Below, in pieces: positions 16,713-58,552 of a DNA stretch of 64,000 bases (the first letter of the stretch is position 1; every line of letters starts with the position of its first letter). A program made the position numbers and the translations under genes. The notes under the pieces were generated by a model. It was not told the DNA's origin. It made no database searches and worked only from the letters and a program-made list of their open reading frames with translations. The stretch lies in the NCBI RefSeq assembly GCF_044324785.1, contig NZ_CP172127.1. The stretch is one strand, 5' to 3'. The DNA is from Escherichia coli (lineage in GTDB: Bacteria; Pseudomonadota; Gammaproteobacteria; Enterobacterales; Enterobacteriaceae).

Positions 16713-16788
16713 TGGTGGGTCGTGCAGGATTCGAACCTGCGACCAATTGATTAAAAGTCAACTGCTCTACCAACTGAGCTAACGACCC
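16713..16788 (-). tRNA. lysV: tRNA-Lys (anticodon UUU)
   Basis: Reverse complement GGGTCGTTAGCTCAGTTGGTAGAGCAGTTGACTTTTAATCAATTGGTCGCAGGTTCGAATCCTGCACGACCCACCA, 76 nt, encoded CCA. Confidence 0.95.
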
Positions 16789-16792
16789 GAAG

Positions 16793-16868
16793 TGGTGGGT
16801 GATGACGGGATCGAACCGCCGACCCCCTCCTTGTAAGGGAGGTGCTCTCCCAGCTGAGCTAATCACCC
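16793..16868 (-). tRNA. valY: tRNA-Val (anticodon UAC)
   Basis: rc GGGTGATTAGCTCAGCTGGGAGAGCACCTCCCTTACAAGGAGGGGGTCGGCGGTTCGATCCCGTCATCACCCACCA; one of three identical copies. Confidence 0.95.
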
Positions 16869-16914
16869 ACTTCGGTACTTCACATTTTTACAAGAAATTT
16901 AGCTGGCGAGAAAG

Positions 16915-16990
16915 TGGTGGGTGATGACGGGATCGAACCGCCGACCCCCTCCTTGTAAGGGAGGTGCTCTCCCAGCTGAGCTAATCACCC
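16915..16990 (-). tRNA. valX: tRNA-Val (anticodon UAC)
   Basis: Identical 76-nt sequence to copy at 16793-16868. Confidence 0.95.
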
Positions 16991-17034
16991 ACTTCTCAAT
17001 TTCTTGCTACACGGCGGAGACTACATAAAGTAGT

Positions 17035-17110
17035 TGGTGGGTGATGACGGGATCGAACCGCCGACCCCCTCCTTGTAAGGGAGGTGCTCTCCCAGCTGAG
17101 CTAATCACCC
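17035..17110 (-). tRNA. valU: tRNA-Val (anticodon UAC)
   Basis: Identical 76-nt sequence; first gene of the tRNA operon, divergent from gltX. Confidence 0.95.
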
Positions 17111-19808: not shown

Positions 19809-19884
<76 letters not shown>

Positions 19885-19923
19885 AATTTTGCACCCAGCA
19901 AATTTGGTACGTAAACGCATCGT

Positions 19924-19999
<76 letters not shown>

Positions 20000-39771: not shown

Positions 39772-40126
39772 TTTACATCTCTCCGCGTAATTACTGTTAC
39801 GCCTGAATGACTTCATTACACCTGATACAGTGAGTTGACACCGGGCAAAACGACCTTAAAAGTCCTGTATTTTACCGTGGGCATCACCCCAGAATTCTGA
39901 GCTAAACTGCTCCAGACGGCGCTAATGTACGCCTAAAACTGAAACGAGACAAGAGGCATTTTCTTATTTACTTTTAGTAACTTACAGGTGTCTCATATCG
40001 GCGACAGTTTAATTTCTGGCGGTAATAATTAGAGATTCAGCGAAGGAAAAAACCTTAAGAAAAAAGCCATAAAAACCATGAGGTTATTATGGCTGATTTG
40101 AGGAGGGAAAGAGTAAGAGCAGTTTG

Positions 40127-41047
40127 TTAAATGTATAACGACGATTCACCCACCGGGCGCGTTTTAAAGCGACGGTGGATCCAGAGGTACTGCTCCGGCG
40201 CGCGCATGATCTCTTTCTCGATAATCTTGTTCATATAGGCAGCGGCTTGATTTTCATCTGCCGGGTAGCCTTCCATCTCTGGGGTGATGTACAAACGATA
40301 TCCGCTGTAATCCGCTTTTCTTACCATCGTTACGGTTAACATGGCTGCGCCAGAGAGACGTGAAAGGACATACGTACCATTGGTTGTGGCGACATTTTCC
40401 ACCGCAAAGAACGGCGCGAAGGAGCTGCCTTTACGACCATAATCCTGATCGGGAGCAAACCATACCGCTTCACCTTTCTTCAGTGCACCGACAATGCCGC
40501 GTAGATTATTTCTGCCGATCATCGCTTTGTTAGAGCGCATGCGCCCACGGGTCTGCACCCATTCCATCAGCTGATTATTATGTGGACGATAGGTAGCCAT
40601 CATTGGTTGACAAAGTCCCATCACGCGGCCGCCCAGTTCCAGCGACATAAAATGGACGCCGACAACCATTACGCCGCGATTTTGCATTTGTGCGCGTTTA
40701 AGGTTATCCAGTCCTTCAACATCAAACCATTTGCGTACGCGACTGTCGGGCCAGAACCACGCCATGCCGGTTTCTACCAGCGCCATGCCGAGTGAACGAA
40801 AGTTTTCGGCAATCATCTTCTCGCGTTCTTCCGCAGAATGCTGCGGGAAGCAAAGTTCCAGGTTTTTACGGGCGATAGATTCACGCCGTTTCAGGAATGG
40901 TCGCGCCATTGCGCCAATACGCGTGCCGAGAAAGCAGAGAACAGGATAAGGAAGCTGTACCCAAAGCCAGAGTACACCAAGCCCAAACCATGTGAGCCAG
41001 TAGCGAGGATGTAGAAACTCGCGGGAAAATTTGCATTGTGGAAACAT
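40127..41047 (-). CDS. lpxP: lipid A palmitoleoyltransferase (cold-induced late acyltransferase)
   Basis: 306 aa from internal ATG (MFPQCKFSREFLHPRYW...); HtrB/MsbB acyltransferase family. Confidence 0.88.
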   Translation of the reverse strand: MFPQCKFSREFLHPRYWLTWFGLGVLWLWVQLPYPVLCFLGTRIGAMARPFLKRRESIARKNLELCFPQHSAEEREKMIAENFRSLGMALVETGMAWFWPDSRVRKWFDVEGLDNLKRAQMQNRGVMVVGVHFMSLELGGRVMGLCQPMMATYRPHNNQLMEWVQTRGRMRSNKAMIGRNNLRGIVGALKKGEAVWFAPDQDYGRKGSSFAPFFAVENVATTNGTYVLSRLSGAAMLTVTMVRKADYSGYRLYITPEMEGYPADENQAAAYMNKIIEKEIMRAPEQYLWIHRRFKTRPVGESSLYI

Positions 41048-41399
41048 AGTTACCTTCTGTAGATACGAATTGTTGTATCGCAGAAGATTCCATGTCGACA
41101 GCGGTACACTCAATTGGTTGGGCCATCATGTACGACAATGGTTCCTGTAAAGAGTGTAAAGACTAGTCAGGACATAACCACGAGGAGCATGAATGCGGTG
41201 GCTCTACTTTATCACTGGCTGACTGCTTTCAGCTACTGATTATTAATCGTGCAAAGTAAATATTTTTCCGCACGCAATAGCGTTGCATTTAACGTGCTGT
41301 TTTCATTGATGCTTAGCAAAAATTGCCAGAGGTTAAGGATTGTCTTACTATTAAAGTGACTGAAGTTACAGGTTTTTTAGCGCGGCAGGAGGTTGAGCT

Positions 41400-41642
41400 A
41401 TGATTTATTTATGGATGTTTCTCGCCCTGTGTATTGTCTGCGTAAGCGGCTACATTGGTCAGGTCCTGAACGTGGTATCGGCGGTCTCTTCTTTCTTCGG
41501 CATGGTGATCCTCGCTGCACTCATTTATTACTTCACCATGTGGTTAACTGGCGGTAATGAACTGGTGACGGGGATATTTATGTTTCTTGCCCCGGCTTGT
41601 GGCTTGATGATTCGCTTTATGGTGGGGTATGGCAGGCGCTAG
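41400..41642 (+). CDS. yfdY: small inner-membrane protein (DUF2545 type)
   Basis: 80 aa, two predicted TM helices. Confidence 0.75.
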   Translation: MIYLWMFLALCIVCVSGYIGQVLNVVSAVSSFFGMVILAALIYYFTMWLTGGNELVTGIFMFLAPACGLMIRFMVGYGRR

Positions 41643-41718
41643 TGGGTCAGGATGGTTCATTTGGGCAGGTGTTCACATCAGCATCAGGCATGATTGTTCA
41701 CCTGCCATGTGACAGACG

Positions 41719-41994
41719 CTATCGCACAGGATGGATAAGATAATTCGCCTTTGTCGGAAAAGGGGGCGGAATTTCTTCTGTGAGGTTTAATGGTGGCGCA
41801 TCTTCTCTCAACTTAAACAAAATCGCCTGTGATGGCTGAAGTTTTGTAGAATGAGTTGTCGTCATCACTGACGTTTTTTCTGTCTCTTTATAGCTCGTCT
41901 CACTTCCACCACCAGAAATAGAAAATGCAAAAACATTGCATGCCATAATAGAGACCAATAAAAATAAGCTAAAAAGCATTAAGTTTACTTTCAT
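41719..41994 (-). CDS. ypdI: small lipoprotein
   Basis: 91 aa; signal peptide with lipobox (SIMAC). Confidence 0.75.
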   Translation of the reverse strand: MKVNLMLFSLFLLVSIMACNVFAFSISGGGSETSYKETEKTSVMTTTHSTKLQPSQAILFKLREDAPPLNLTEEIPPPFPTKANYLIHPVR

Positions 41995-42289
41995 AGAAAG
42001 TTATCCTGAAAATGGTTCACTGAAAACCTACGACGTTATGGCTGTATTTACATATAATTAATCAGTATTTACATCGATATAATAAATGACATCTCTTTTT
42101 GGTATATAAGAATAGTTCTCTGTGACAGGAAGCATATTCCTACAATTGTAAGACTAAAATACTTCTTGCGATAATAACTACAGCTGTAAGATAACCCTTT
42201 CAAAATGACCGTTGCTCTCTGATTTCTCATTTCATGCTCACCCAATATGATGGCGGCGTTTTCTAAAACTGTTAAAGAATGAGGTAAGT

Positions 42290-42922
42290 ATGAAACGTTT
42301 AATTATGGCTACGATGGTCACAGCAATTCTGGCATCTTCAACTGTATGGGCGGCTGATAATGCACCGGTAGCGGCACAACAGCAAACTCAGCAAGTTCAG
42401 CAAACCCAGAAAACGGCAGCAGCAGAGCGTATCTCTGAACAAGGTTTATATGCGATGCGTGACGTGCAGGTAGCGCGCCTGGCTCTGTTTCATGGCGATC
42501 CGGAAAAGGCAAAAGAACTGACCAATGAAGCTTCAGCTTTGTTGTCAGATGACAGTACCGAATGGGCAAAGTTCGCTAAGCCAGGTAAAAAGACCAATCT
42601 CAATGATGACCAATATATTGTCATTAATGCATCTGTCGGAATTTCTGAGAGTTATGTAGCGACACCCGAAAAAGAAGCCGCGATAAAAATTGCCAACGAA
42701 AAAATGGCGAAAGGGGATAAAAAGGGCGCAATGGAAGAGCTTCGCCTGGCCGGTGTTGGCGTAATGGAAAACCAATATCTGATGCCGCTTAAACAGACTC
42801 GTAATGCACTTGCTGATGCGCAGAAACTGCTTGATAAAAAGCAATACTACGAGGCAAACCTGGCGCTTAAAGGTGCTGAAGATGGAATCATCGTCGATAG
42901 CGAAGCACTGTTTGTGAACTAA
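42290..42922 (+). CDS. yfdX: periplasmic YfdX-family protein
   Basis: 210 aa, signal peptide [21 protein letters not shown]. Confidence 0.88.
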
Positions 42923-43446
42923 AGCTGACAGGCAATATATTGAGGTAAAGGATTTAACTCCCTCCAGCCGACAATTTTTTATGACCACAATACGACAGGT
43001 TGTGGTCATAAAATTATTTGGCGCTCGCGGTTCTATAAACTCGCATTTTATCTTCCTCAAAGTAACCCGCAATAATTCCGTGTCATCACAAATCATTTAT
43101 TATGTTATGCTTTATGGTACGCTTTAAAAAGCGTAATCATACCCTTACTTGTAAATCACCGGCGCTTCTTACAGTTGTAAGAATAACATCACAAATGTCG
43201 CGGCTCTCTCTGATTACCGCGAACCAATATTTATCATATTCTTCTTTTCGTCCTCACTACTTACCATGCAGAAAGGAATTGGAAGTGGCGATGAAATGAT
43301 TATCAGCACTTGATACAGGAATTTAAAAATATCGAGTGCAGCTACGACGATATTTTGCGGATTATTTATAGAGAGCGTTATGCCTTAAATAAACGCTAAA
43401 TTAACATATATTTAATTAACTAATAGGTATTGCTATGTCAACTCCA

Positions 43447-43455
43447 CTTCAAGGA
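43447..43455. repeat. target-site duplication, left copy (cttcaagga)
   Basis: 9-bp direct repeat flanking the IS; identical copy at 44513-44521. Confidence 0.9.
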
Positions 43456-43473
43456 GGCTTTGTTGAATAAATC
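43456..43473. repeat. IS903 left terminal inverted repeat
   Basis: ggctttgttgaataaatc. Confidence 0.9.
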
Positions 43474-43511
43474 AGATTTCGGGTAAGTCTCCCCCGTAGC
43501 GGGTTGTGTTT

Positions 43512-44480
43512 TCAGGCAATACGCACGCTTTCAGGCATACCTGCTTTCGTCATTTTGTTCAGCGCTCGTACCAGGGCCATAGCCTCCGCAACCTGACCAT
43601 CGTAGTCACGCAGCGTCAGTGAACCCCCGAACAGCTGTTTTACCCGGTACATCGCCGTTTCCGCTATCGAGCGACGGTTGTAATCTGTTGTCCATTTCCA
43701 CCGCGCATTACTCCCGGTCATTCGCTGATTAGCCACTGCACGGTTACGGTCTGCATATTCACCGGGCCAGTAACCCGCACCTTTTCGGGGAGGGATAAGC
43801 GCGCTGATTTTCTTACGCCGCAGTTCATCGTGACATAGCCGGGTATCGTAAGCGCCATCGGCGGCGGCTGACCTGATTTTCCGGTGGGTTTGCCGGATTA
43901 ACCCGGGGAAGGCCTCTGAGTCCGTAACGTTGTTCAGCGACAGGTCAGCGCAGATGATTTCATGTGTTTTACTGTCAACGGCGAGATGCAGCTTACGCCA
44001 GATACGGCGGCGTTCCTGGCCATGCTTTTTGACTTTCCACTCGCCTTCACCGAAGACCTTCAGCCCGGTGGAATCAATTACCAGGTGTGCGATTTCACCC
44101 CGGGTGGGCGTTTTGAAACTGACATTAACCGACTTTGCCCGCCTGCTGACACAGCTGTAATCCGGGCAGCGTAGCGGAACGTTCATCAGAGAAAAAATGG
44201 AATCAATAAAGCCCTGCGCAGCCCGCAGGGTCAGCCTGAATACGCGTTTAATGACCAGCACAGTAGTGATGGCAAGGTCAGAATAGCGCTGAGGTCTGCC
44301 TCGTGAAGAAGGTGTTGCTGACTCATACCAGGCCTGAATAGCTTCATCATCCAGCCAGAAAGTTATGGAGCCACGGTTGATGAGGGCTTTATTGTAGGTG
44401 GGCCAGTTGGTGATTTTGAACTTTTGCTTTGCCACGGAACGGTCTGCGTTGTCGGGAAGATACGTGATCTGATCCTTCAA
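43512..44480 (-). CDS. IS903-group transposase (DDE)
   Basis: 322-aa ORF filling the IS; IS5/IS903-type transposase sequence. Confidence 0.9.
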
Positions 44481-44494
44481 CTCAGCAAAAGTTC

Positions 44495-44512
44495 GATTTA
44501 TTCAACAAAGCC
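44495..44512. repeat. IS903 right terminal inverted repeat
   Basis: gatttattcaacaaagcc, reverse complement of the left IR. Confidence 0.9.
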
Positions 44513-44521
44513 CTTCAAGGA
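44513..44521. repeat. target-site duplication, right copy (cttcaagga)
   Basis: Identical to 43447-43455. Confidence 0.9.
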
Positions 44522-45804
44522 ATTAAAGTTCTCGATTTCACCGGTGTGCAATCTGGCCCATCTTGTACTCAGATGCTGGCCTGGTTTGGCGCTGACGTCA
44601 TTAAAATTGAACGTCCCGGCGTTGGTGACGTAACGCGTCACCAGCTGCGAGATATTCCTGATATCGATGCGCTTTACTTCACCATGCTTAACAGTAACAA
44701 ACGTTCTATTGAATTAAATACCAAAACAGCGGAAGGCAAAGAGGTAATGGAAAAGCTGATCCGCGAAGCTGATATCTTAGTCGAGAACTTTCATCCAGGG
44801 GCCATTGATCACATGGGCTTCACCTGGGAGCATATTCAAGAAATCAATCCACGTCTGATTTTTGGTTCGATCAAAGGGTTTGATGAGTGTTCGCCTTATG
44901 TGAATGTAAAAGCCTATGAAAACGTTGCTCAGGCAGCGGGTGGTGCGGCATCCACTACAGGTTTTTGGGACGGCCCGCCGCTGGTAAGCGCTGCAGCGTT
45001 GGGTGACAGCAACACCGGAATGCATTTGCTGATCGGTTTACTTGCTGCTTTGCTGCATCGCGAAAAAACGGGGCGTGGGCAACGAGTTACCATGTCAATG
45101 CAGGATGCCGTGTTGAACCTTTGCCGCGTGAAATTACGCGACCAGCAGCGTCTCGATAAGTTGGGGTATCTGGAAGAATACCCGCAGTATCCGAATGGCA
45201 CATTTGGTGATGCAGTTCCCCGCGGTGGTAATGCGGGTGGTGGCGGTCAGCCTGGCTGGATCCTGAAATGTAAAGGCTGGGAAACCGATCCTAATGCCTA
45301 TATTTATTTCACTATTCAGGAGCAAAACTGGGAAAACACCTGTAAAGCTATCGGCAAACCAGAATGGATTACCGATCCGGCATATAGTACAGCTCATGCC
45401 CGACAGCCACATATTTTCGATATTTTTGCTGAAATCGAAAAATACACTGTCACTATTGATAAACATGAAGCGGTGGCCTATTTGACTCAGTTTGATATTC
45501 CTTGTGCACCGGTTTTAAGTATGAAAGAAATTTCACTTGATCCCTCTTTGCGCCAAAGTGGCAGTGTTGTCGAAGTGGAACAACCGTTGCGTGGAAAATA
45601 TCTGACAGTTGGTTGTCCAATGAAATTCTCTGCCTTTACGCCGGATATTAAAGCTGCGCCGCTATTAGGTGAACATACCGCTGCTGTATTGCAGGAGTTG
45701 GGTTATAGCGACGATGAAATTGCTGCAATGAAGCAAAACCACGCCATCTGATATTAACGGGGGCTTCTGGCTCCCAATTTATAAAAATTTCGAGGTTATT
45801 AATC

Positions 45805-47499
45805 ATGTCAGATCAACTTCAAATGACAGATGGTATGCATATCATCGTTGAAGCATTAAAACAGAATAATATTGACACTATTTATGGTGTTGTAGGTATT
45901 CCTGTGACGGATATGGCACGCCATGCCCAGGCGGAAGGCATTCGTTATATTGGTTTTCGTCATGAGCAGTCGGCAGGCTATGCCGCTGCGGCAAGCGGTT
46001 TTCTTACCCAAAAACCAGGGATCTGCCTGACAGTGTCTGCGCCAGGATTCCTCAATGGTTTGACCGCATTGGCCAACGCAACGGTAAATGGTTTTCCGAT
46101 GATCATGATTAGCGGCTCCAGCGACCGCGCGATCGTCGACCTACAGCAAGGTGATTATGAAGAGCTGGACCAAATGAATGCGGCAAAACCGTATGCCAAA
46201 GCAGCATTCCGCGTTAATCAGCCGCAGGATCTTGGCATTGCATTGGCACGCGCTATCCGGGTCTCAGTATCGGGTCGCCCTGGCGGAGTTTATCTTGATT
46301 TGCCTGCAAATGTCCTGGCCGCGACGATGGAAAAAGACGAAGCGTTAACCACGATTGTAAAAGTTGAAAATCCGTCGCCAGCATTATTGCCATGCCCGAA
46401 GTCAGTCACTAGCGCAATTTCGCTTTTAGCAAAAGCTGAACGGCCATTAATTATCCTTGGCAAAGGCGCGGCGTATTCACAAGCTGATGAACAGCTTCGT
46501 GAATTTATTGAAAGTGCTCAGATCCCATTCCTGCCAATGTCTATGGCGAAAGGGATCCTCGAAGATACGCATCCACTTTCTGCGGCAGCTGCGCGTTCGT
46601 TTGCCCTGGCAAATGCTGACGTTGTCATGCTTGTTGGTGCACGACTGAATTGGTTACTGGCGCACGGTAAAAAAGGATGGGCGGCAGATACACAGTTTAT
46701 TCAACTGGAAATTGAACCGCAGGAAATTGACAGCAACCGCCCCATTGCTGTGCCAGTCGTTGGTGATATTGCATCCAGTATGCAAGGTATACTGGCAGAA
46801 TTGAAACAAAACACATTTACGACTCCACTGGTATGGCGCGATATTTTAAATATCCACAAGCAGCAAAATGCACAAAAAATGCATGAAAAATTAAGTACAG
46901 ATACTCAACCATTAAATTACTTTAATGCATTAAGTGCTGTGCGCGACGTATTGCGCGAGAACCAGGATATTTATTTAGTTAATGAAGGGGCAAATACCCT
47001 GGATAATGCACGAAATATTATTGATATGTATAAACCACGTCGTCGTCTGGATTGTGGCACCTGGGGTGTCATGGGCATCGGTATGGGCTATGCCATCGGT
47101 GCTAGCGTGACTTCTGGTTCTCCGGTTGTCGCCATTGAAGGTGATAGTGCTTTTGGTTTCAGTGGGATGGAGATTGAAACGATTTGTCGATATAACCTGC
47201 CGGTGACGATCGTTATTTTTAATAATGGCGGCATTTACAGAGGAGACGGTGTTGATCTCAGTGGCGCTGGTGCACCATCACCAACAGATCTATTGCACCA
47301 TGCAAGGTATGACAAATTAATGGATGCGTTTCGTGGCGTTGGCTATAACGTCACTACGACAGATGAACTTCGTCATGCTTTAACCACCGGTATTCAGTCG
47401 CGCAAACCGACCATTATTAATGTGGTCATCGACCCTGCAGCAGGAACTGAAAGTGGCCATATTACCAAACTTAACCCAAAACAAGTCGCTGGTAATTAA
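45805..47499 (+). CDS. oxc: oxalyl-CoA decarboxylase (ThDP-dependent)
   Basis: 564 aa thiamine-diphosphate enzyme family. Confidence 0.93.
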
Positions 47500-47567
47500 A
47501 TACTGACATCGTCTCCTCTTGCCAACTCATTATCGATGGTGAGGGGACCCTTATCGGAAATACTATT

Positions 47568-48512
47568 ATGCTAACATTTTTTATTGGCGATTTATTGCCT
47601 ATTATCGTAATCATGCTGTTGGGTTATTTTAGCGGCAGACGAGAAACTTTTTCAGAAGATCAAGCCCGGGCATTTAATAAACTGGTATTAAACTACGCTC
47701 TTCCTGCGGCTCTATTTGTATCTATTACCCGGGCAAACAGGGAAATGATTTTTGCGGACACTCGTCTGACCCTTGTATCACTTGTGGTTATTGTCGGATG
47801 TTTCTTTTTCTCCTGGTTCGGTTGCTACAAATTTTTTAAACGTACTCATGCAGAAGCAGCAGTATGTGCATTAATTGCAGGTTCACCTACCATTGGATTC
47901 CTGGGATTTGCAGTTCTCGATCCTATTTATGGTGATTCCGTATCAACAGGTTTAGTTGTAGCAATTATTTCTATTATTGTTAACGCAATTACTATTCCTA
48001 TTGGTCTGTATTTGCTGAATCCTTCCTCAGGAGCGGATGGTAAGAAGAATAGTAATCTGAGCGCATTAATTTCTGCGGCAAAGGAGCCAGTAGTATGGGC
48101 ACCTGTTCTGGCAACGATCCTGGTGTTGGTTGGGGTAAAAATTCCGTCAGCATGGGACCCAACCTTTAATCTGATTGCGAAGGCTAACTCAGGGGTAGCG
48201 GTATTCGCTGCGGGGTTGACTCTGGCTGCACATAAATTCGAGTTCAGTGCCGAAATTGCTTATAACACCTTCCTGAAGCTGATTCTGATGCCACTGGCGC
48301 TGCTTCTCGTTGGTATGGCATGTCATTTGAACAGCGAACATTTGCAGATGATGGTACTGGCAGGCGCTTTACCGCCGGCATTCTCCGGAATCATTATTGC
48401 CAGCCGGTTTAATGTCTACACCCGCACTGGTACAGCATCATTGGCTGTGAGCGTACTGGGCTTTGTCGTCACGGCTCCCTTGTGGATTTATGTCAGTCGA
48501 CTGGTTTCATAA
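47568..48512 (+). CDS. yfdV: AEC-family (auxin efflux carrier-like) transporter
   Basis: 314 aa polytopic membrane protein. Confidence 0.88.
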
Positions 48513-48540
48513 TTAATCATGTTATTGATTTTACATAAAT

Positions 48541-48571
48541 GCCGAAGTGTCTTTTCACCTTCGGCTTTTTT
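48541..48571 (+). terminator. rho-independent terminator after yfdV
   Basis: gccgaag-tgtcttttcac-cttcggc followed by tttttt; lies inside the ORF-track N-terminal extension of yfdE, supporting the downstream start. Confidence 0.7.
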
Positions 48572-48585
48572 CAAGGCATAAGCAA

Positions 48586-49731
48586 ATGACAAATAATGAA
48601 TGCAAAGGGCCGTTTGAAGGCTTATTAGTTATCGATATGACACATGTCCTTAATGGACCTTTCGGAACTCAACTTCTTTGTAATATGGGCGCAAGGGTAA
48701 TTAAAGTTGAGCCGCCGGGTCATGGTGATGATACCCGCACATTTGGTCCCTATGTGGATGGGCAGTCACTCTATTACAGTTTTATTAATCATGGCAAAGA
48801 GAGTGTGGTTCTTGATTTAAAGAATGCTCACGATAAAAGTATATTTATAAATATGCTTAAACAAGCTGATGTATTAGCTGAGAATTTTCGCCCAGGTACA
48901 ATGGAAAAACTGGGGTTTTCATGGGAAACGCTACAAGAAATCAACCCGCGTCTCATATATGCTTCATCGTCAGGTTTTGGGCATACCGGCCCGCTAAAAG
49001 ATGCTCCAGCCTACGATACCATCATTCAGGCAATGAGCGGGATAATGATGGAAACAGGGTACCCTGATGCTCCGCCAGTGCGCGTGGGTACCTCTCTTGC
49101 GGATTTATGTGGCGGTGTCTATTTATTCAGCGGAATAGTGAGTGCACTTTATGGCCGCGAAAAGAGCCAGAGAGGGGCGCATGTCGATATAGCGATGTTT
49201 GATGCCACGCTGAGTTTTCTGGAGCATGGTCTGATGGCATATATTGCGACAGGGAAGTCACCACAACGCCTGGGAAATCGCCATCCCTACATGGCACCTT
49301 TTGATGTTTTTGATACTCAGGATAAGCCGATTACGATTTGTTGTGGTAATGACAAGCTTTTTTCTGCGTTATGCCAGGCACTGGAGCTTACGGAACTGGT
49401 TAATGATCCCCGATTTAGCAGCAATATTTTACGCGTACAAAACCAGGCTATTCTTAAACAATATATTGAGCGAACGTTAAAAACACAGGCAGCTGAAGTT
49501 TGGTTAGCCAAAATACATGAAGTTGGTGTGCCCGTCGCGCCGTTATTAAGTGTGGCTGAGGCCATTAATTTGCCACAAACTCAGGCGAGAAATATGTTGA
49601 TTGAAGCCGGGGGAATAATGATGCCAGGTAATCCGATAAAAATCAGCGGCTGCGCGGACCCGCATGTTATGCCGGGAGCGGCAACGCTCGACCAGCATGG
49701 GGAACAAATTCGCCAGGAATTCTCATCGTAA
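48586..49731 (+). CDS. yfdE: family III CoA-transferase (acetyl-CoA:oxalate CoA-transferase)
   Basis: 381 aa from ATG 48586 (MTNNECKGPFEGLLVIDMTHVLNGPFG...); paralogous to Frc. Confidence 0.88.
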   Translation: MTNNECKGPFEGLLVIDMTHVLNGPFGTQLLCNMGARVIKVEPPGHGDDTRTFGPYVDGQSLYYSFINHGKESVVLDLKNAHDKSIFINMLKQADVLAENFRPGTMEKLGFSWETLQEINPRLIYASSSGFGHTGPLKDAPAYDTIIQAMSGIMMETGYPDAPPVRVGTSLADLCGGVYLFSGIVSALYGREKSQRGAHVDIAMFDATLSFLEHGLMAYIATGKSPQRLGNRHPYMAPFDVFDTQDKPITICCGNDKLFSALCQALELTELVNDPRFSSNILRVQNQAILKQYIERTLKTQAAEVWLAKIHEVGVPVAPLLSVAEAINLPQTQARNMLIEAGGIMMPGNPIKISGCADPHVMPGAATLDQHGEQIRQEFSS

Positions 49732-49786
49732 ATGTTAGATATGCTGGTAAATAGCTCCCACATTTGAACATTGTGGGAGCCGCTAT

Positions 49787-52700
49787 TTAGTCATTTTGTT
49801 GACAGAAAACAGCAATCTCCTGGTCTAACTCTGCAATGTGTTCTTTAACAGAGTTCAGCAACTTAAGAATTTCAGGCTTGCTGTCATCTGAAACGGGCGT
49901 TATTTCTAACTGATGGCTAATATTAATCAACTTTTGCAAATTCAGGATGTTAGCCGCACCGTGGATGCGATGAATACACTGATGGAAAGTTCTGTTGTCG
50001 CCAGCTTCTAGTGCATGAAACGCAGCGGGTAGATCTTTATGCGTTTCATGCTGGAAAGTCATGAGAATCTCCTGCATCAGTTGTAGATCGTTCGCCGTAT
50101 TATTTTTCAGGGCCTCGATATCAAGGTGGCGATACTGAGGTGCAATATGCGCAACCTGGTGTAACTGACTTAAATGTGTTTTCAGTACATCCAGGGTCAA
50201 CGGTTTGAACAAACATAAGTTCATGCCGCAATTTAACCCTTTTTCACGTTCGTTAGCCTGTGCGTTGGCTGTAAGCCCCCAGATGGGTAAGGAAGAATTT
50301 TGCTCACGGAGTTTGCGAGTCAACTCAAAACCATCCATATTCGGCATATTAACGTCAGTAATAAGCAGATCATAATGTTGCATACTGACTTTGTGTAGCG
50401 CTTGCACACCATCAGTTGCTTCATCAACATCATATCCTAATAGGTTTAGCTGGCGTTTGAGTAATAGCCTGTTGGTCGGATGATCATCCGCTATTAATAT
50501 GCTCAACTTTTCAGGGAGTGTCATAGGTTGTTCTGCTTTTGCCTCGACAGTCGCCACTTGTTGGGTAATTTCTACCGGGATTGTGATCGTAAATGTCGTT
50601 CCTATGCCTGGATGACTTTCTAATGATAAATCGCCCTGCATGTTTTTAATTAATTCTTTGCAGATCATTAAGCCTAAACCAGAACCTGTTTGCTGACGAC
50701 CTGCACTTGTTTGGCTATAGCGTTTAAACAGTTGTTGTTGTTCTTCCTGCGATAATCCACTTCCAGAATCCATAATCGTCATTTTGATAACAGCGTGGTT
50801 GTCATCAATGTGACCCAGGGAGGTCGTAATTTTTACTGCCCCCTCGGTAGTAAATTTAAGAGCATTGCTCAGTAAATTAGATAAGACCTGCTTAAACGCC
50901 TGAGGGTCGATCTTAACCTGGTAATGTTCTGGAAACGTACTGCTGCAACTTAATGCGATGGATTTGCTTGCAGCAATCGCACCGAAAGAGTGACAAGTGT
51001 TCTGGACTAAAGTAGGGATGTCGACCCATTGTGGTTGAAGTTGATAGTTACCCGACTCAATTTTGTCGACATCAAGGATTTCACCAATTAAGCCGAGGAG
51101 TGATTGTCCGGTGGCGTAGGCAAGTGAAATCGCCTCCACCCGTTGCTCCTTGCTAAGACCAGAACCCGACAGAAGTTCGAGGAAGCCCATAATGGAGCTT
51201 ATTGGTGTTCTTATTTCGTGACTCATTGTTGCCAGAAACTGGCTTTTTGCGACAGTTGCATTGATCGCTTTATTTCTCTCTACTTCGAGTGCATGAATTA
51301 AATCACGCGTCTCGGTAATATCTTGCCAACCACAAATATAAACAGCATGATCGCTGGCTGGCAGATTGCATAATGTATGCCAGTGATTAATGCATCTTTT
51401 CTCGATGCCATTATCAATTTCAAATACCTGTGTGTATATTGTTCGATTTTCTTTCGTTTCTGCTGTGACTTCATGCGCATTAGAAAAAACATCTTTAAAG
51501 GGTGAGTCACTGTTTTCTAATGGTAACATTGCATTTTTGTAGTAATCCGCAGTGAAATAATGTTCAAAAGCACTATTATGACTAATGACATTACCTTGCC
51601 AGTTTACAACATAAGTTGGATTCGGTAAGGAATCCGAGAGTGCTTTTCGGAATGATATTTGGTTTTCTAAATCACCCTGAATGACTTTACGACGACGAAC
51701 TGAGCGTAACAGGTAGAATCCCCATAAAAGGCTACTGCCAACTAATAAAACGGATAATGTCGTGACAATATAAAATTGCTCGCTATAGAGGTCCCATGTG
51801 TCAATGGTCACATTGGGCATTTTAATCCATTTTTCCGTCAGGCGCAGAACTTCGCTTGGGGGAATTGCATTCAGTGCTTTATTAATAATATCCTTAAGTT
51901 CCGGTTCTCCGCGAGGAAAAGCGAACGAAAGCGATGCATTCTGAACGCCGGGAATAAGAAAATGATAAAGTTCATTAGGATAGTAATGGTCGATCATGTA
52001 ACGCGAATTTAGCTGTGTCGCGACCAGAGCATCAAGTTCACCTTCCTTGACCTTGTGAAATGCAGCACTAGCGTTATCGACTTTTATCCACTCTACCTCC
52101 GGATACATCTCTTTTAATTGCGAATGAAGCTCATAATAATATGGAATGGCAACTTTCATTCCTTTTTTTAATGTTTGTTCACTGTCAGGCGCTTTTTGCA
52201 TGACAAAAACGTAAGGCGTTGTTATGAAGGCTTCAGCAAATGAAACATTATTTTCTCGATCTTCACTATAAATAGCGGCGGGCAATATATCCCATCCACC
52301 GGGGTTAAGCTGTGTCCCCGCATGAATATTGTGTGAAACGGTGATCGGAGAAAAATTTAAACCTGTTTGCAAGGTAATAATATTAAGAATATCACCCATC
52401 ACGCCCCGAACTGAGCCAGTTTCATCTGTCATAGAATAGGGTGGCGAGTAAGGATTTTCCAGCACCTTTAAATCGGGATGCTGCTTAATCCACTGTTTTT
52501 CATGTTCAGTGAGTTCTAATGGTTTGTTCAGAAAGGCCAGGTTTCCTGTATCAAGCCAATTTTGTGATACTTCATAGCGAACTTCATTTGTTAAAGCATC
52601 AACAAACCGATTGAGTACTTCATTAAGAACGACTGAATCTTTTCTGGTTAAGAAAAAGTTATATTGACGCGGCGAGTTATAATATTTCACTACATTTAAG

Positions 52701-53380
52701 GAGTGAGTGAAATAGCGGGAAATCATACTGCTGGTAATAATGTTACTACCAATAAAGTAATCATTCTGTCCGGCTGAGACGGATGCTAATGCCTGATATA
52801 AATTTGTAAAAGAGATAATTGTTGCTTTTGGAAATGATTGATGAATTACCTCGTCTGGAGGGTAATTTGCTACCCGAGCAATATTTACTGGTTTTGATGA
52901 GGTAAGCGGTCTCATTGAATCGTGAAGGGTGGTGACCAGCGCCGGAAAGGTAATTATCAGCGGTTTGGTTGCAGCAATGTCATCATTAAGAGGCGGCGAA
53001 GCAACTAAATGTGATAACACTATATCGACTTCACCTTCTTCCAGCGCGTCCATTGCTTTTTGATGATCGGCGTATTCCCGGAGTGTTAATTTGATATTTA
53101 ACGCTCTTTTTAAAAGATTTAAATAATCAGCATTAATACCACGAACCCGTTGCTGCGAATCGGTATGCAACAACGTAGCCGTTTGGGACTTGTGTACTGC
53201 AATCACAAGATTTTTTTTGCTCGCTAACCAACGTAATTCCTTGTTGCTCAGACGTAGTGGATCAAGTGTGACACGGTTGTTACTACTGATGCCACGATAT
53301 TCGATGTAATCTTCGTCTGCGAAACTTATGGTCGACCAAAGACCACAACAGAGAAGAAAAATATAGGGTAAAAACTTCAT
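49787..53380 (-). CDS. evgS: hybrid sensor histidine kinase EvgS
   Basis: 1197 aa; tandem periplasmic solute-binding domains, TM, HisKA/HATPase, receiver, HPt. Confidence 0.95.
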   Translation of the reverse strand: MKFLPYIFLLCCGLWSTISFADEDYIEYRGISSNNRVTLDPLRLSNKELRWLASKKNLVIAVHKSQTATLLHTDSQQRVRGINADYLNLLKRALNIKLTLREYADHQKAMDALEEGEVDIVLSHLVASPPLNDDIAATKPLIITFPALVTTLHDSMRPLTSSKPVNIARVANYPPDEVIHQSFPKATIISFTNLYQALASVSAGQNDYFIGSNIITSSMISRYFTHSLNVVKYYNSPRQYNFFLTRKDSVVLNEVLNRFVDALTNEVRYEVSQNWLDTGNLAFLNKPLELTEHEKQWIKQHPDLKVLENPYSPPYSMTDETGSVRGVMGDILNIITLQTGLNFSPITVSHNIHAGTQLNPGGWDILPAAIYSEDRENNVSFAEAFITTPYVFVMQKAPDSEQTLKKGMKVAIPYYYELHSQLKEMYPEVEWIKVDNASAAFHKVKEGELDALVATQLNSRYMIDHYYPNELYHFLIPGVQNASLSFAFPRGEPELKDIINKALNAIPPSEVLRLTEKWIKMPNVTIDTWDLYSEQFYIVTTLSVLLVGSSLLWGFYLLRSVRRRKVIQGDLENQISFRKALSDSLPNPTYVVNWQGNVISHNSAFEHYFTADYYKNAMLPLENSDSPFKDVFSNAHEVTAETKENRTIYTQVFEIDNGIEKRCINHWHTLCNLPASDHAVYICGWQDITETRDLIHALEVERNKAINATVAKSQFLATMSHEIRTPISSIMGFLELLSGSGLSKEQRVEAISLAYATGQSLLGLIGEILDVDKIESGNYQLQPQWVDIPTLVQNTCHSFGAIAASKSIALSCSSTFPEHYQVKIDPQAFKQVLSNLLSNALKFTTEGAVKITTSLGHIDDNHAVIKMTIMDSGSGLSQEEQQQLFKRYSQTSAGRQQTGSGLGLMICKELIKNMQGDLSLESHPGIGTTFTITIPVEITQQVATVEAKAEQPMTLPEKLSILIADDHPTNRLLLKRQLNLLGYDVDEATDGVQALHKVSMQHYDLLITDVNMPNMDGFELTRKLREQNSSLPIWGLTANAQANEREKGLNCGMNLCLFKPLTLDVLKTHLSQLHQVAHIAPQYRHLDIEALKNNTANDLQLMQEILMTFQHETHKDLPAAFHALEAGDNRTFHQCIHRIHGAANILNLQKLINISHQLEITPVSDDSKPEILKLLNSVKEHIAELDQEIAVFCQQND

Positions 53381-53384
53381 GTGG

Positions 53385-53999
53385 TTAGCCGATTTTGTTA
53401 CGTTGTGCGAATGTGTAAAGATCCATCAGTGATTTACATTCTAATTTTTCCATCAGGCGACTTTTATAAGTGCTGACAGTTTTGTTGCTGATGAACATTT
53501 TTTCAGCAATGTCATTATTATCCTTGCCATCAAGAATATATCGCATGACACTAATTTCTTGTTTCGATAAGGAGTCGAGTTTTTGCTGGTCGGACGTTAA
53601 ACTTCCAACAAACCGGTTGAGAGAGAAGGGGAAATAGCAGTAGCCATTTTTTGCAGCTTCAATAGCCGCAATGATATTGTTCATGCCTTCTTTTTTACTC
53701 ACGAATCCATTAGCGCCAGCATCAGCACAATGTTTCCCGTAAAAATGGTCATTTTTAGCGGAGACGATAATAATAATTCCGCTATATTGACGCTTCCTTA
53801 GCGTTTCTAACACCTGGATACCGTTAACTCCGGGGATATCGACATCAATGATGACGATATCAGGCTTAAGTGTTTCCACCCGCTGAACGGCGCTTCCGCC
53901 TTCAGTCAACTCTGCTAAGATTTCAATATCGTTTTTGATCAATAAATTACGAATAGCTGCGATAGCAAGAGGATGGTCATCAATAATTATTGCGTTCAT
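53385..53999 (-). CDS. evgA: response regulator EvgA (NarL/FixJ family)
   Basis: 204 aa; receiver domain plus LuxR-type HTH. Confidence 0.95.
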   Translation of the reverse strand: MNAIIIDDHPLAIAAIRNLLIKNDIEILAELTEGGSAVQRVETLKPDIVIIDVDIPGVNGIQVLETLRKRQYSGIIIIVSAKNDHFYGKHCADAGANGFVSKKEGMNNIIAAIEAAKNGYCYFPFSLNRFVGSLTSDQQKLDSLSKQEISVMRYILDGKDNNDIAEKMFISNKTVSTYKSRLMEKLECKSLMDLYTFAQRNKIG

Positions 54000-54223
54000 A
54001 GATTATTCCCTTTGCAATGAAGCATCTCCCTTCTCCCTGTAGTAATACAGACATAAGGCATCATCTCATTTTCTCAATAAAAATAAGAAAATTTGAGCTT
54101 CCTTTAAGATAATTCGACAAGTATACCATATAAATAGTCGGCATAAATGAAATGTCAACAATAAAATCAGGGATTGTACCGATGATTTATAGTTTCACAT
54201 TAGCACTATAAGTCTTCTCACTA

Positions 54224-54241
54224 ATCCTACAGGCGTAAGAA
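54224..54241. promoter_or_regulatory. candidate EvgA box (18-bp imperfect inverted repeat) in evgA-emrK divergent intergenic region
   Basis: aTCCTACAggCGTAAGAA, resembling the reported EvgA half-site TTCPyTACA in inverted orientation. Confidence 0.45.
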
Positions 54242-54414
54242 TTGTATTGCAAAAGCCACGGTTTAGTCCTCTGTTGTTTCTTTTGCACCTCATTTAAATT
54301 AGGCCTCCAACGTTCCTGGGATAATGTGCAACACATGCACTGTGTTTGATATGAAGAATGAATACTCTTTTCATTCAATTCATAAATTTCATCTATGCGA
54401 AATGAGAGATAATA

Positions 54415-55578
54415 GTGGAACAGATTGATTCAAATAAAAAACATTCTAACAGAAGAAAATACTTTTCTTTATTGGCGGTAGTTTTATTTATTGCGTTTTC
54501 AGGTGCCTATGCCTATTGGTCAATGGAATTAGAAGACATGATTAGTACAGATGACGCCTATGTCACGGGGAATGCAGATCCAATTTCTGCACAAGTTTCA
54601 GGCAGCGTCACTGTCGTTAATCATAAAGATACGAACTACGTTCGACAGGGTGACATTTTAGTCTCACTGGATAAGACTGATGCCACTATCGCACTCAATA
54701 AAGCTAAAAATAATCTGGCCAATATTGTTCGGCAAACGAATAAACTGTACTTACAGGATAAACAATACAGTGCCGAAGTCGCTTCAGCACGTATTCAGTA
54801 TCAACAATCTTTAGAAGATTATAACCGTCGTGTACCTTTAGCGAAGCAGGGGGTTATTTCAAAAGAAACGCTGGAGCATACCAAAGATACGTTAATAAGT
54901 AGCAAAGCGGCATTGAATGCTGCTATTCAGGCTTATAAAGCGAATAAAGCTTTAGTAATGAACACACCATTAAACCGTCAGCCACAAGTCGTTGAAGCGG
55001 CGGATGCAACCAAAGAAGCCTGGTTAGCGCTTAAACGTACGGATATTAAGAGTCCTGTTACCGGCTATATTGCCCAGAGAAGCGTTCAGGTCGGCGAAAC
55101 AGTGAGTCCCGGACAATCGTTAATGGCTGTCGTACCGGCACGTCAAATGTGGGTTAATGCCAACTTTAAAGAAACACAACTTACGGATGTGCGGATTGGT
55201 CAATCGGTCAATATTATCAGCGATCTTTATGGTGAAAATGTTGTGTTTCATGGTCGGGTGACAGGGATCAATATGGGAACCGGCAATGCGTTCTCCTTAT
55301 TACCTGCACAAAATGCGACAGGGAATTGGATCAAAATCGTTCAGCGTGTACCGGTTGAGGTTTCTCTTGATCCAAAAGAACTCATGGAACATCCCTTGCG
55401 TATTGGTTTATCGATGACTGCAACTATTGATACCAGGAACGAAGACATTGCCGAGATGCCCGATCTGGCTTCAACCGTGACGTCCATGCCTGCTTATACC
55501 AGTAAGGCTTTAGTTATCGATACCAGTCCGATAGAAAAAGAAATTAGCAACATTATTTCGCATAATGGACAACTTTAA
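54415..55578 (+). CDS. emrK: multidrug efflux membrane fusion protein (EmrA paralog)
   Basis: 387 aa HlyD-family periplasmic adaptor; stop overlaps emrY start. Confidence 0.92.
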   Translation: MEQIDSNKKHSNRRKYFSLLAVVLFIAFSGAYAYWSMELEDMISTDDAYVTGNADPISAQVSGSVTVVNHKDTNYVRQGDILVSLDKTDATIALNKAKNNLANIVRQTNKLYLQDKQYSAEVASARIQYQQSLEDYNRRVPLAKQGVISKETLEHTKDTLISSKAALNAAIQAYKANKALVMNTPLNRQPQVVEAADATKEAWLALKRTDIKSPVTGYIAQRSVQVGETVSPGQSLMAVVPARQMWVNANFKETQLTDVRIGQSVNIISDLYGENVVFHGRVTGINMGTGNAFSLLPAQNATGNWIKIVQRVPVEVSLDPKELMEHPLRIGLSMTATIDTRNEDIAEMPDLASTVTSMPAYTSKALVIDTSPIEKEISNIISHNGQL

Positions 55579-57116
55579 TGGCAATCACTAAATCAACTCC
55601 GGCACCATTAACTGGTGGGACGTTATGGTGCGTCACTATTGCATTGTCATTAGCGACGTTTATGCAAATGTTGGATTCCACTATTTCTAACGTCGCAATA
55701 CCGACAATATCTGGATTTCTGGGAGCATCAACAGACGAAGGCACCTGGGTTATCACTTCGTTTGGCGTAGCAAATGCCATTGCGATCCCTGTTACCGGCA
55801 GGCTGGCACAAAGAATAGGCGAATTAAGATTATTTTTACTTTCAGTAACCTTTTTTTCGCTGTCTTCATTAATGTGTAGTTTATCGACCAATCTTGATGT
55901 GCTGATATTTTTTAGAGTCGTTCAGGGGTTAATGGCGGGGCCGTTAATTCCACTGTCACAGAGTTTATTATTAAGGAATTATCCACCAGAAAAAAGAACA
56001 TTTGCTCTGGCATTATGGTCTATGACCGTGATTATCGCTCCGATATGTGGGCCGATATTGGGCGGCTATATTTGTGATAACTTTAGTTGGGGCTGGATAT
56101 TTTTAATCAATGTCCCTATGGGGATTATCGTCCTGACATTATGCTTAACCTTACTTAAAGGAAGAGAAACTGAGACTTCACCGGTCAAAATGAATCTACC
56201 AGGACTGACCCTGTTAGTGCTCGGTGTTGGTGGCTTGCAAATTATGCTTGATAAAGGTCGTGATCTGGATTGGTTCAACTCGAGTACAATAATAATATTA
56301 ACAGTGGTATCAGTTATTTCTCTGATCTCTTTAGTCATTTGGGAGTCGACCTCAGAGAATCCGATTCTTGATCTCAGTTTGTTTAAGTCCCGTAATTTCA
56401 CCATTGGTATTGTGAGTATCACATGCGCGTATTTATTTTACTCTGGGGCGATAGTCCTTATGCCGCAGTTACTCCAGGAAACGATGGGGTATAATGCGAT
56501 ATGGGCCGGACTTGCTTATGCGCCCATCGGCATCATGCCGCTATTAATTTCACCTTTGATAGGACGTTATGGCAACAAAATAGACATGCGGTTGTTAGTG
56601 ACATTTAGTTTTTTGATGTATGCGGTTTGCTATTACTGGCGTTCTGTGACATTTATGCCAACGATTGATTTTACAGGCATCATTTTGCCACAGTTTTTTC
56701 AGGGATTCGCCGTCGCCTGTTTCTTTTTACCCTTAACAACGATTTCGTTTTCAGGTTTGCCAGATAATAAATTTGCCAATGCCTCGAGTATGAGTAATTT
56801 TTTTCGTACCTTGTCAGGATCAGTTGGTACGTCGTTGACAATGACGCTGTGGGGACGCCGAGAATCATTACACCATAGTCAGTTGACAGCAACAATCGAT
56901 CAATTTAACCCCGTGTTTAATTCATCGTCACAAATTATGGATAAATATTATGGTTCGCTTTCAGGGGTTCTTAATGAAATTAATAATGAAATAACTCAGC
57001 AGTCACTTTCAATTTCTGCAAATGAGATTTTCCGTATGGCGGCTATTGCTTTTATCTTACTTACGGTATTGGTTTGGTTTGCGAAACCGCCGTTTACAGC
57101 GAAAGGTGTTGGGTGA
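55578..57116 (+). CDS. emrY: MFS multidrug efflux pump (EmrB paralog)
   Basis: 512 aa, 14-TM major facilitator. Confidence 0.92.
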   Translation: MAITKSTPAPLTGGTLWCVTIALSLATFMQMLDSTISNVAIPTISGFLGASTDEGTWVITSFGVANAIAIPVTGRLAQRIGELRLFLLSVTFFSLSSLMCSLSTNLDVLIFFRVVQGLMAGPLIPLSQSLLLRNYPPEKRTFALALWSMTVIIAPICGPILGGYICDNFSWGWIFLINVPMGIIVLTLCLTLLKGRETETSPVKMNLPGLTLLVLGVGGLQIMLDKGRDLDWFNSSTIIILTVVSVISLISLVIWESTSENPILDLSLFKSRNFTIGIVSITCAYLFYSGAIVLMPQLLQETMGYNAIWAGLAYAPIGIMPLLISPLIGRYGNKIDMRLLVTFSFLMYAVCYYWRSVTFMPTIDFTGIILPQFFQGFAVACFFLPLTTISFSGLPDNKFANASSMSNFFRTLSGSVGTSLTMTLWGRRESLHHSQLTATIDQFNPVFNSSSQIMDKYYGSLSGVLNEINNEITQQSLSISANEIFRMAAIAFILLTVLVWFAKPPFTAKGVG

Positions 57117-57220
57117 TGGTAAAAGCAAGGGGTTATAGCGGGTAAGACCGGGGATCTTAAGTCTGCGCCATCGGCAGCATCGCTCACCCAGGGAAAGGAT
57201 GGCGATGCTGCGTTGAAACG

Positions 57221-58552
57221 TTATGAACGGCCTTTTGCCAGATATTGATTCATCTCTTCTTCCGGCACCATTCCACCTCCCGTCGCCCACACCAGATGAG
57301 TGGCATTATGCAGTTGTTCTGCGCTGAAACCGTGCATCTGTTGGTAACTTACTGATGCGCACACGCGCTGAGGCCCGGCCATACCCGCCAGTGCCGAAGG
57401 TTCAAGACGAATACCTTCTTCCTGCGCCAGCCAGCCAAGCATGTCATACATGGTTTGATCGCTAAGGGTATAGAAGCCATCCAGTAGACGCTCCATTGCC
57501 CGCCCGACAAAGCCTGATGCGCGACCAACTGCAAGGCCATCCGCTGCGGTAAGGTTGTCGATACCAATATCCTGAACAGAAATCTGATCGTGTAATCCTG
57601 TATGGACGCCTAACAACATACAAGGGGAGTGCGTTGGTTCGGCAAAAAAGCAGTGAACATGATCGCCAAACGCCAGTTTAAGCCCGAATGCGACGCCACC
57701 AGGACCACCGCCAACACCACACGGCAGATAGACAAACAGAGGGTTATCAGCATCGACAATACGACCTTGCTCGGCAAATTGCGCTTTAAGACGCTGGCCT
57801 GCGACGGAATACCCAAGGAACAACGTGCGGGAATTCTCGTCATCAATAAAGAAACAGTTCGGGTCAGACTGCGCTGCTTTACGTCCTTCCTCGACGGCAA
57901 CACCATAATCTTGCTCATATTCCACGACCGTAACGCCATGGCTGCGCAGTTTCGCTTTTTTCCATGCCCGGGCATCAGCAGACATATGTACTGTCACCTT
58001 AAAGCCAATGCGGGCGCTCATAATGCCGATTGATAACCCCAGATTTCCGGTTGAGCCCACAGCAATGCTGTATTGGCTAAAGAACTGTTTAAATTCCGGA
58101 GAAAGCAGTTTGCTGTAGTCATCTTCAAGCGTCAGCAACCCCGCTTCCAGAGCCAGTTTTTCTGCATGTGCCAGGACTTCATAAATCCCGCCGCGTGCTT
58201 TTATGGAGCCGGAAATGGGCAAATGGCTATCTTTTTTCAGTAGCAGTTGCCCGCTGATCGGTTGTTGATATTCCTTTTCCAGCCGTTTTTGCATAGCCGG
58301 AATGGCAACCAGTTCTGATTCAATAATCCCCCCAGTGGCAGCAGTTTCAGGAAATGCTTTTGCCAGATAGGGTGCAAAACGAGATAAGCGCGCATGGGCG
58401 TCCTGAACATCCTGTTCGGTCAGGCCAACATAAGGTAAACCTTCAGCCAATGAGGTCGTGCCAGGATTAAACCAGGTGGTTTCTTTAAGAGCAACCAGAT
58501 CCTTTACCAACGGATACTGGGCGATGAGCGAGTTCATTTTAGCGTTTTCCAT
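57221..58552 (-). CDS. dsdA: D-serine ammonia-lyase (D-serine dehydratase)
   Basis: 443 aa PLP enzyme (SGSIKARGG lysine motif). Confidence 0.95.

Follow-up and report, generated by a model that had tools for sequence, protein, structure and literature searches.

A complete IS903B insertion sequence interrupting frc, the formyl-CoA transferase gene, in Escherichia coli

The stretch of Escherichia coli DNA analysed here (64,000 nucleotides, hereafter the window) carries, on the plus strand, the genes yfdX, frc (yfdW, encoding formyl-CoA:oxalate CoA-transferase), oxc, yfdV and yfdE, with frc divided into two pieces by a mobile element. The first of these genes, yfdX (42290–42922), was recognised by an NCBIfam profile and is followed by an intergenic region that extends to 43434 and, according to the literature, holds the EvgA-dependent promoter of frc on the plus strand, upstream of the element; a terminator-like hairpin is found in the same region (42977–43013). 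The 5' fragment of frc (43435–43455, plus) consists of the start and codons 1–7, encoding MSTPLQG, and reads directly into the element, while the remainder of the gene, codons 8–416 and the stop (44522–45751, plus), is severed from both its start codon and its promoter. Downstream, oxc (45805–47499), yfdV (47568–48512) and yfdE (ORF 48547–49731, with a profile match from residue 14) are intact and each was identified by an NCBIfam equivalog model. EvgA reportedly binds ahead of both yfdX and yfdW and induces yfdX and yfdWUVE, and both the operon structure of frc-oxc-yfdV-yfdE and its EvgA sites have been described (PMC3720670).

The element between the two pieces of frc is 1057 bp long (43456–44512). 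Its left end, distal to the transposase start, is formed by GGCTTTGTTGAATAAATC (43456–43473, plus), which is the same as the ends of IS102 (pSC101) and IS903B (Rts1), and its transposase-proximal end by the exact reverse complement (44495–44512, minus), so that the two make perfect 18-bp terminal inverted repeats. With up to three mismatches allowed, this repeat has only two matches in the window, compared with 0.07 expected from shuffled sequences. A composite transposon was ruled out, as the inverted repeat was found only twice in the 64 kb. Both ends of the element are directly abutted by a 9-bp direct repeat, CTTCAAGGA (43447–43455 and 44513–44521), for which the probability of a chance match at fixed positions is about 4^-9. 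An element of this length, with perfect 18-bp inverted repeats and a flanking 9-bp repeat, had been described in an earlier note on this DNA; all of these features were found in the sequence, and every coordinate in that note was correct. The same holds for the one transposase ORF that it had listed (43512–44480, minus), which is the single ORF of the element and encodes 322 amino acids from a TTG, in agreement with the RefSeq CDS model for identical copies (969 nt). We refine its start to an in-frame GTG at 44435, giving a transposase of 307 amino acids (43512–44435, minus), the length characterised for the IS903 transposase.

The 307-residue protein scored 357.6 bits against the NCBIfam model for IS5 family transposases (NF033579, cutoff 140) and contains the Pfam domains DDE_Tnp_1_5 (PF13737) and DDE_Tnp_1 (PF01609). 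Residues D121, D193 and E259, reported as the catalytic D-D-E positions of the IS903 transposase (Tavakoli et al. 1997), are all present. The family of its transposase, its length, its ends and the 9-bp duplication all place the element in the IS903 group (IS5 family), as had been claimed beforehand from the sequence. Over its full length it is 100.0% identical to many copies on E. coli chromosomes and plasmids, and on this identity to annotated copies the whole of 43456–44512 (minus, by the strand of the transposase gene) can be described as a complete IS903B isoform of 1057 bp, the label given by RefSeq to the identical E. coli copies being ‘IS5-like element IS903B family transposase’ (WP_000654812.1). 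IS903-like sequence occurs in 1,993 of the 5,426 complete E. coli genomes surveyed (median, 2 places per genome; highest number, 47), and the element is carried by at least 5,000 plasmids, mainly of Klebsiella and Escherichia.

Comparison with two named members of the group, IS903B and IS102, points to the same isoform. By the convention of ISfinder, a copy counts as an isoform when its DNA is at least 95% and its transposase at least 98% identical to the prototype, and the window copy lies above both values in relation to the Rts1/Tn2680 IS903B copy, from which it differs at 31 of 1057 nucleotides (97.1% identity) and in two amino acids, K156N and S189A (305/307 residues the same, 99.3%). Those differences apart, it resembles the IS903B prototype (Tn2680 of plasmid Rts1) in its 1057 bp, identical 18-bp ends and 9-bp duplication. 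IS102 of pSC101 also has its architecture, terminal repeats and 9-bp duplication in common with the window copy, and IS903 of Tn903 its architecture and 9-bp duplication; however, the window copy is not IS102, because it differs from it at 75 nucleotides (92.9% DNA identity) and at 14 amino acids. Of the two named members compared, Rts1 IS903B and IS102, the distances are thus 31 versus 75 nucleotide differences, and the element is, on these comparisons, more precisely an IS903B isoform. In the literature, IS903B of Rts1 is given as 1057 bp with a 9-bp duplication, the IS903 group is placed in the IS5 family, and its members are said to be more than 94% identical to one another (PMC12670165). 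The same paper, citing Mollet et al. 1985, places the prototype IS903B within Tn2680 on plasmid Rts1. For IS903/IS102, too, target duplications of 9 bp are on record (PMC12670165, PMC2577343).

The differences from the Rts1 prototype are unevenly spread, since 27 of the 31 fall within a 170-bp patch at element nucleotides 381–552 (window positions 43836–44007). The patch is no nearer to IS102, and only 2 of the 31 differences alter the protein. Because the differences are clustered in this patch and the patch is not IS102-like, the isoform that predominates in E. coli looks like a mosaic, and recombination between IS903-group isoforms is suggested as the origin of the patch.

The insertion point lies 21 nucleotides into frc, and the 9 duplicated base pairs correspond exactly to codons 5–7. 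Read from its own start codon, the interrupted gene encodes MSTPLQGGFVE, 11 amino acids, and then a stop. On the other side, the end of the element that precedes the frc remnant has an in-frame stop at 44465 and offers no ATG, GTG or TTG, the first possible start being a GTG at 44546 (codon 16). A functional Frc is very unlikely because translation stops after 11 residues and the remnant has no start codon before codon 16; frc has almost certainly been knocked out by the insertion. Deletion of 43456–44521, i.e., of the element and one copy of the repeat, joins MSTPLQG to IKVLDFT... and gives an ORF of 416 amino acids whose product is identical to YfdW of E. coli K-12 at 416 of 416 positions (PDB 1pt5/1pqy) and scores 784.6 bits against the formyl-CoA transferase model TIGR03253 (cutoff 504.2). 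It had been proposed that the insertion was inside frc, with MSTPLQG before it and the remainder of frc after the second repeat copy, and that removing the element together with one repeat would restore the gene; both proposals are borne out by this restored protein and by the empty site described below. For annotation purposes, frc is here a pseudogene that a mobile element has split, and it should not be entered as a shorter gene of 401 amino acids. In strain AR_0019 (L001, locus 2861–4096), RefSeq calls the frc remnant that lies 3' of an IS903B copy an intact ‘frc’ of 411 amino acids whose start is inside the end of the element. This 411-residue ‘frc’ is an annotation artefact, and caution is advisable when frc is scored as present or absent. 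Two Logan contigs that encode the truncated Frc of 401 amino acids were set aside as artefacts, since Nextera adapter sequence stands at their start.

Contigs encoding exactly the Oxc protein of the window were looked up in search of an empty site. The restored window, without the element and one repeat copy, was identical to an ENA metagenome scaffold of 230 kb (L018) at 8196 of 8196 nucleotides. When the element was kept in the query, the two flank alignments on this scaffold overlapped by exactly the 9 bp of CTTCAAGGA, which occurs there once. Scaffold L018 evidently is a perfect empty site from a sister strain. Since the flanks match it base for base, the transposition appears to have been clean and evolutionarily very recent, and a recent event is also indicated by the exact sequence match between the element and many other copies that circulate among chromosomes and plasmids of E. 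coli; the insertion had been called recent before any such comparison, and this view is upheld by the match of the restored locus. It had also been called strain-specific, and none of the 5,426 complete E. coli genomes carries an insertion sequence at exactly this position of frc. The insertion of AR_0019 comes closest; it lies 16 bp downstream and has a duplication of its own, TTCTCGATT. The alternative, that related genomes have the 1057 bp as a regular component of frc, did not hold. The junction, being unique among the 5,426 complete genomes, is a handy strain-specific marker.

We propose that the DDE transposase would have bound the 18-bp terminal inverted repeats, that the 3' ends of the element would then have been joined to target DNA cut with a 9-bp stagger, and that gap repair would have produced the CTTCAAGGA duplication. 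Frc would thereby have been cut to the 11-residue peptide, and the rest of frc, along with the co-transcribed oxc-yfdV-yfdE, would have been parted from the EvgA-activated promoter by 1 kb of insertion sequence in antisense orientation. IS903-group elements have been reported to give simple insertions, cointegrates and adjacent deletions (PMC12670165, PMC3003695).

Regarding the choice of site, a target motif, WTTYA-N9-TRAAW, is available for IS903 (PMC2577343, Table 1). The flanks of the window copy, CTCCA and ATTAA, match it at 5 of the 10 specified positions, and the other insertions at the locus at 2 to 8 of 10. With a motif match of only 5/10, the site was no longer attributed to a canonical hot-spot sequence, and in the mechanism proposed here a strong match to the local motif would not be what determined the landing site. 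Most likely, the element would have landed where it did because the surrounding low-GC block acts as a regional sink for IS903-type elements, of the kind offered by H-NS-bound, AT-rich DNA. The GC content of the block hit (40–58 kb) is 0.40–0.48, against 0.49–0.57 elsewhere, and of 32 IS903 insertions obtained experimentally in E. coli, 19 were found in H-NS-bound DNA, a behaviour termed ‘transposon capture’ (PMC11335895).

The regional distribution was surveyed with queries made of 300 bp of flank, the insertion sequence and another 300 bp of flank, full coverage being taken to mean an IS903-type element within approximately 1.6 kb. At the frc site, such an element was found nearby in 18 genomes (7 distinct sites) in the same orientation and in 4 genomes (3 sites) in the opposite one, i.e., IS903B lies within approximately 1.6 kb in 22 genomes, at about 10 distinct positions in or beside yfdX, frc and oxc. 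The control at evgA (53447) gave 8 genomes and those at nupC (23447) and fryA (33447) none, and about 7 insertion sites were counted in evgA/evgS/emrK across the 5,426 genomes. From the 4,742 chromosomal places of the element in those genomes, about 1.5 genomes would be expected per site and orientation. Each of the eight same-orientation copies fetched (8/8) has its own intact 9-bp duplication, including that of YJ6, which is an IS5-family relative of 91% identity. The other natural IS903B insertions at this locus (AR_0019, the 0H26 series, AH04, ECGC74, EC21Z-137, strain 165, LA3 and 730V1) are of the same or nearly the same isoform as the window copy (97.6–100% identity) and have their own intact 9-bp duplications, whether they lie within yfdX, frc or oxc or in the intergenic DNA upstream, but all of them are at other positions. 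As judged from GC content at the locus and from the literature, the IS903B pile-up in yfdX-frc-oxc-yfdV-yfdE-evgS-evgA-emrK-emrY (40000–58000) is consistent with targeting of H-NS-bound, AT-rich DNA, and it modestly extends the H-NS capture of IS5-family elements to natural isolates.

The same clustering could also have an adaptive origin, with loss of the EvgA-regulated oxalate/formyl-CoA pathway being selected in some niches and explaining the independent IS903B hits. In accordance with this, the roughly ten sites in yfdX-frc-oxc and the roughly seven in evgA/evgS/emrK stand against none at two of the control sites, and several insertions hit the 5' portion of frc or oxc. We nevertheless consider it unlikely, for targeting alone predicts the same pattern in a low-GC block when IS903 is reportedly captured by H-NS-bound, AT-rich DNA, and several of the insertions lie in intergenic DNA on the upstream side of yfdX, without damage to frc or oxc. 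Moreover, the operon has been reported as non-essential for general acid resistance (PMC3720670), so that relaxed selection suffices. The three control sites compared are too few to part targeting from selection, and selection is a possible alternative for which the pattern has no need. A more specific form of the proposal, which we rate slightly lower still, is that the EvgAS-controlled block (yfdX-frc-oxc-yfdVE-evgAS-emrKY) is a convergent target of IS903B in which knock-outs of oxalate acid tolerance are selected in host or farm niches, and that a hot spot of very local extent may exist at frc nucleotides 13–45. This short segment has insertions at +0 (the window) and +16 (AR_0019), and contigs of several draft genomes break at +10 and +11.

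With its intact ends, ORF and D-D-E residues, and with identical copies present at many different sites, the window copy can reasonably be regarded as probably still mobile. That the element might instead be an immobile relic, intact in structure and with transposition lost, for instance through inactivating substitutions or host control, would accord with the two residues, K156N and S189A, at which its transposase departs from the Rts1 prototype. Such a relic is, however, highly improbable: the catalytic residues and both inverted repeats are preserved, and the exact 1057 bp is present at many sites on chromosomes and plasmids, up to dozens per genome, with its own duplications where examined, and therefore points to recent transposition of this very isoform.

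As for the consequences of the insertion, the transposase gene is antisense to the frc operon, and the element stands between the EvgA-activated promoter region and frc-oxc-yfdV-yfdE. No outward-facing promoter was detected in it by a consensus promoter scan. Polarity on the co-transcribed oxc-yfdV-yfdE is probable, with some read-through possible, and a frc null combined with such polarity would be predicted to result in the loss of oxalate-induced acid tolerance. What this means for the strain is a predicted loss of formyl-CoA transferase and a probable reduction in the expression of oxc, yfdV and yfdE. The opposite effect, in which an outward or hybrid promoter at the transposase-proximal end of the element would activate oxc-yfdV-yfdE independently of EvgA, is conceivable to the extent that other insertion sequences are known to form hybrid promoters and that the end of this element abuts AT-rich target DNA. 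We give it very little credence, since the promoter scan returned no plus-strand promoter-like site in the element or at its right end, the best candidate found by hand, TTCAAC-17-TAAAGT, matches at only 7 of 12 positions, and frc would be without a start codon whatever the transcription.

An assembly artefact, in which a copy of the element was misplaced in frc during repeat resolution, is practically negligible: although many E. coli strains have several copies of IS903B, misassembly usually stems from repeats and draft assemblies often break near this position of frc, a misplaced repeat would not make a perfect 9-bp target duplication abutting both ends, and both junctions are base-precise with respect to the empty site. 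Taken as a whole, the locus is best explained, in our judgement with near certainty, by a complete and apparently functional IS903B that transposed recently into the chromosomal frc, the loss of function being its expected consequence.

With respect to known biology, what is new here is the insertion site; the element itself is very well known, and the disruption of genes by IS903B is already known and routine. IS903B is among the most widespread insertion sequences of the Enterobacteriaceae, and the case adds nothing new to general biology. Among the papers searched, none connects IS903B with formyl-CoA transferase, which we attribute to the triviality of such a finding rather than to its novelty. 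In Klebsiella pneumoniae, disruption of mgrB by IS903B has been reported in connection with colistin resistance (e.g. PMC10569121). The two cases are alike in that the same element inactivates a chromosomal gene by simple insertion; unlike the mgrB disruptions, which have a clear selected phenotype, the insertion in frc gives no evident sign of selection.

Some further observations concern the rest of the locus and of the window. A look-up of the exact truncated Frc product (401 amino acids) led only to contigs of other lineages (98.0–98.6% identical) that begin 2–3 nucleotides past the duplication. Those from several NCBI draft assemblies (L012–L016; 98.1–98.6% identical to the window) begin at 44523 or 44524, in frc codons 8–9, and these starts may represent further repeat insertions in frc nucleotides 13–45; GCA_012611325.1 and GCA_012732095.1 are among the assemblies concerned. 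An Rfam scan of the whole 64-kb window returned seven tRNAs only, none of them in or near the element. The clusters tRNA-Lys(TTT)-Val(TAC)x3 (16713–17110, minus) and tRNA-Ala(GGC)x2 (19809–19999, plus) are ordinary. At the other end of the window (60119–62242), dsdC (60119–61060) is followed after 100 bp by tRNA-Arg(CCT) (61160–61234), then by an ORF of 310 amino acids without an NCBIfam match, and then by mlaA. No prophage or island was found in the window on the dsdC side of this tRNA; E. coli K-12, in contrast, has the CPS-53 prophage at argW. The segment frc-oxc-yfdV-yfdE-evgS (44522–52000) is unusually divergent, with only 4 of 5,439 records at least 99% identical to it, the best being a soil isolate (99.1%), and over the 7.5-kb flank the best match among complete RefSeq E. 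coli genomes is VCSW7, also at 99.1%. The flanks of the nupC control, in contrast, are at least 99% identical in approximately 4,500 records. These figures suggest that the 44522–52000 block belongs to a distinct allele lineage or has undergone recombination.
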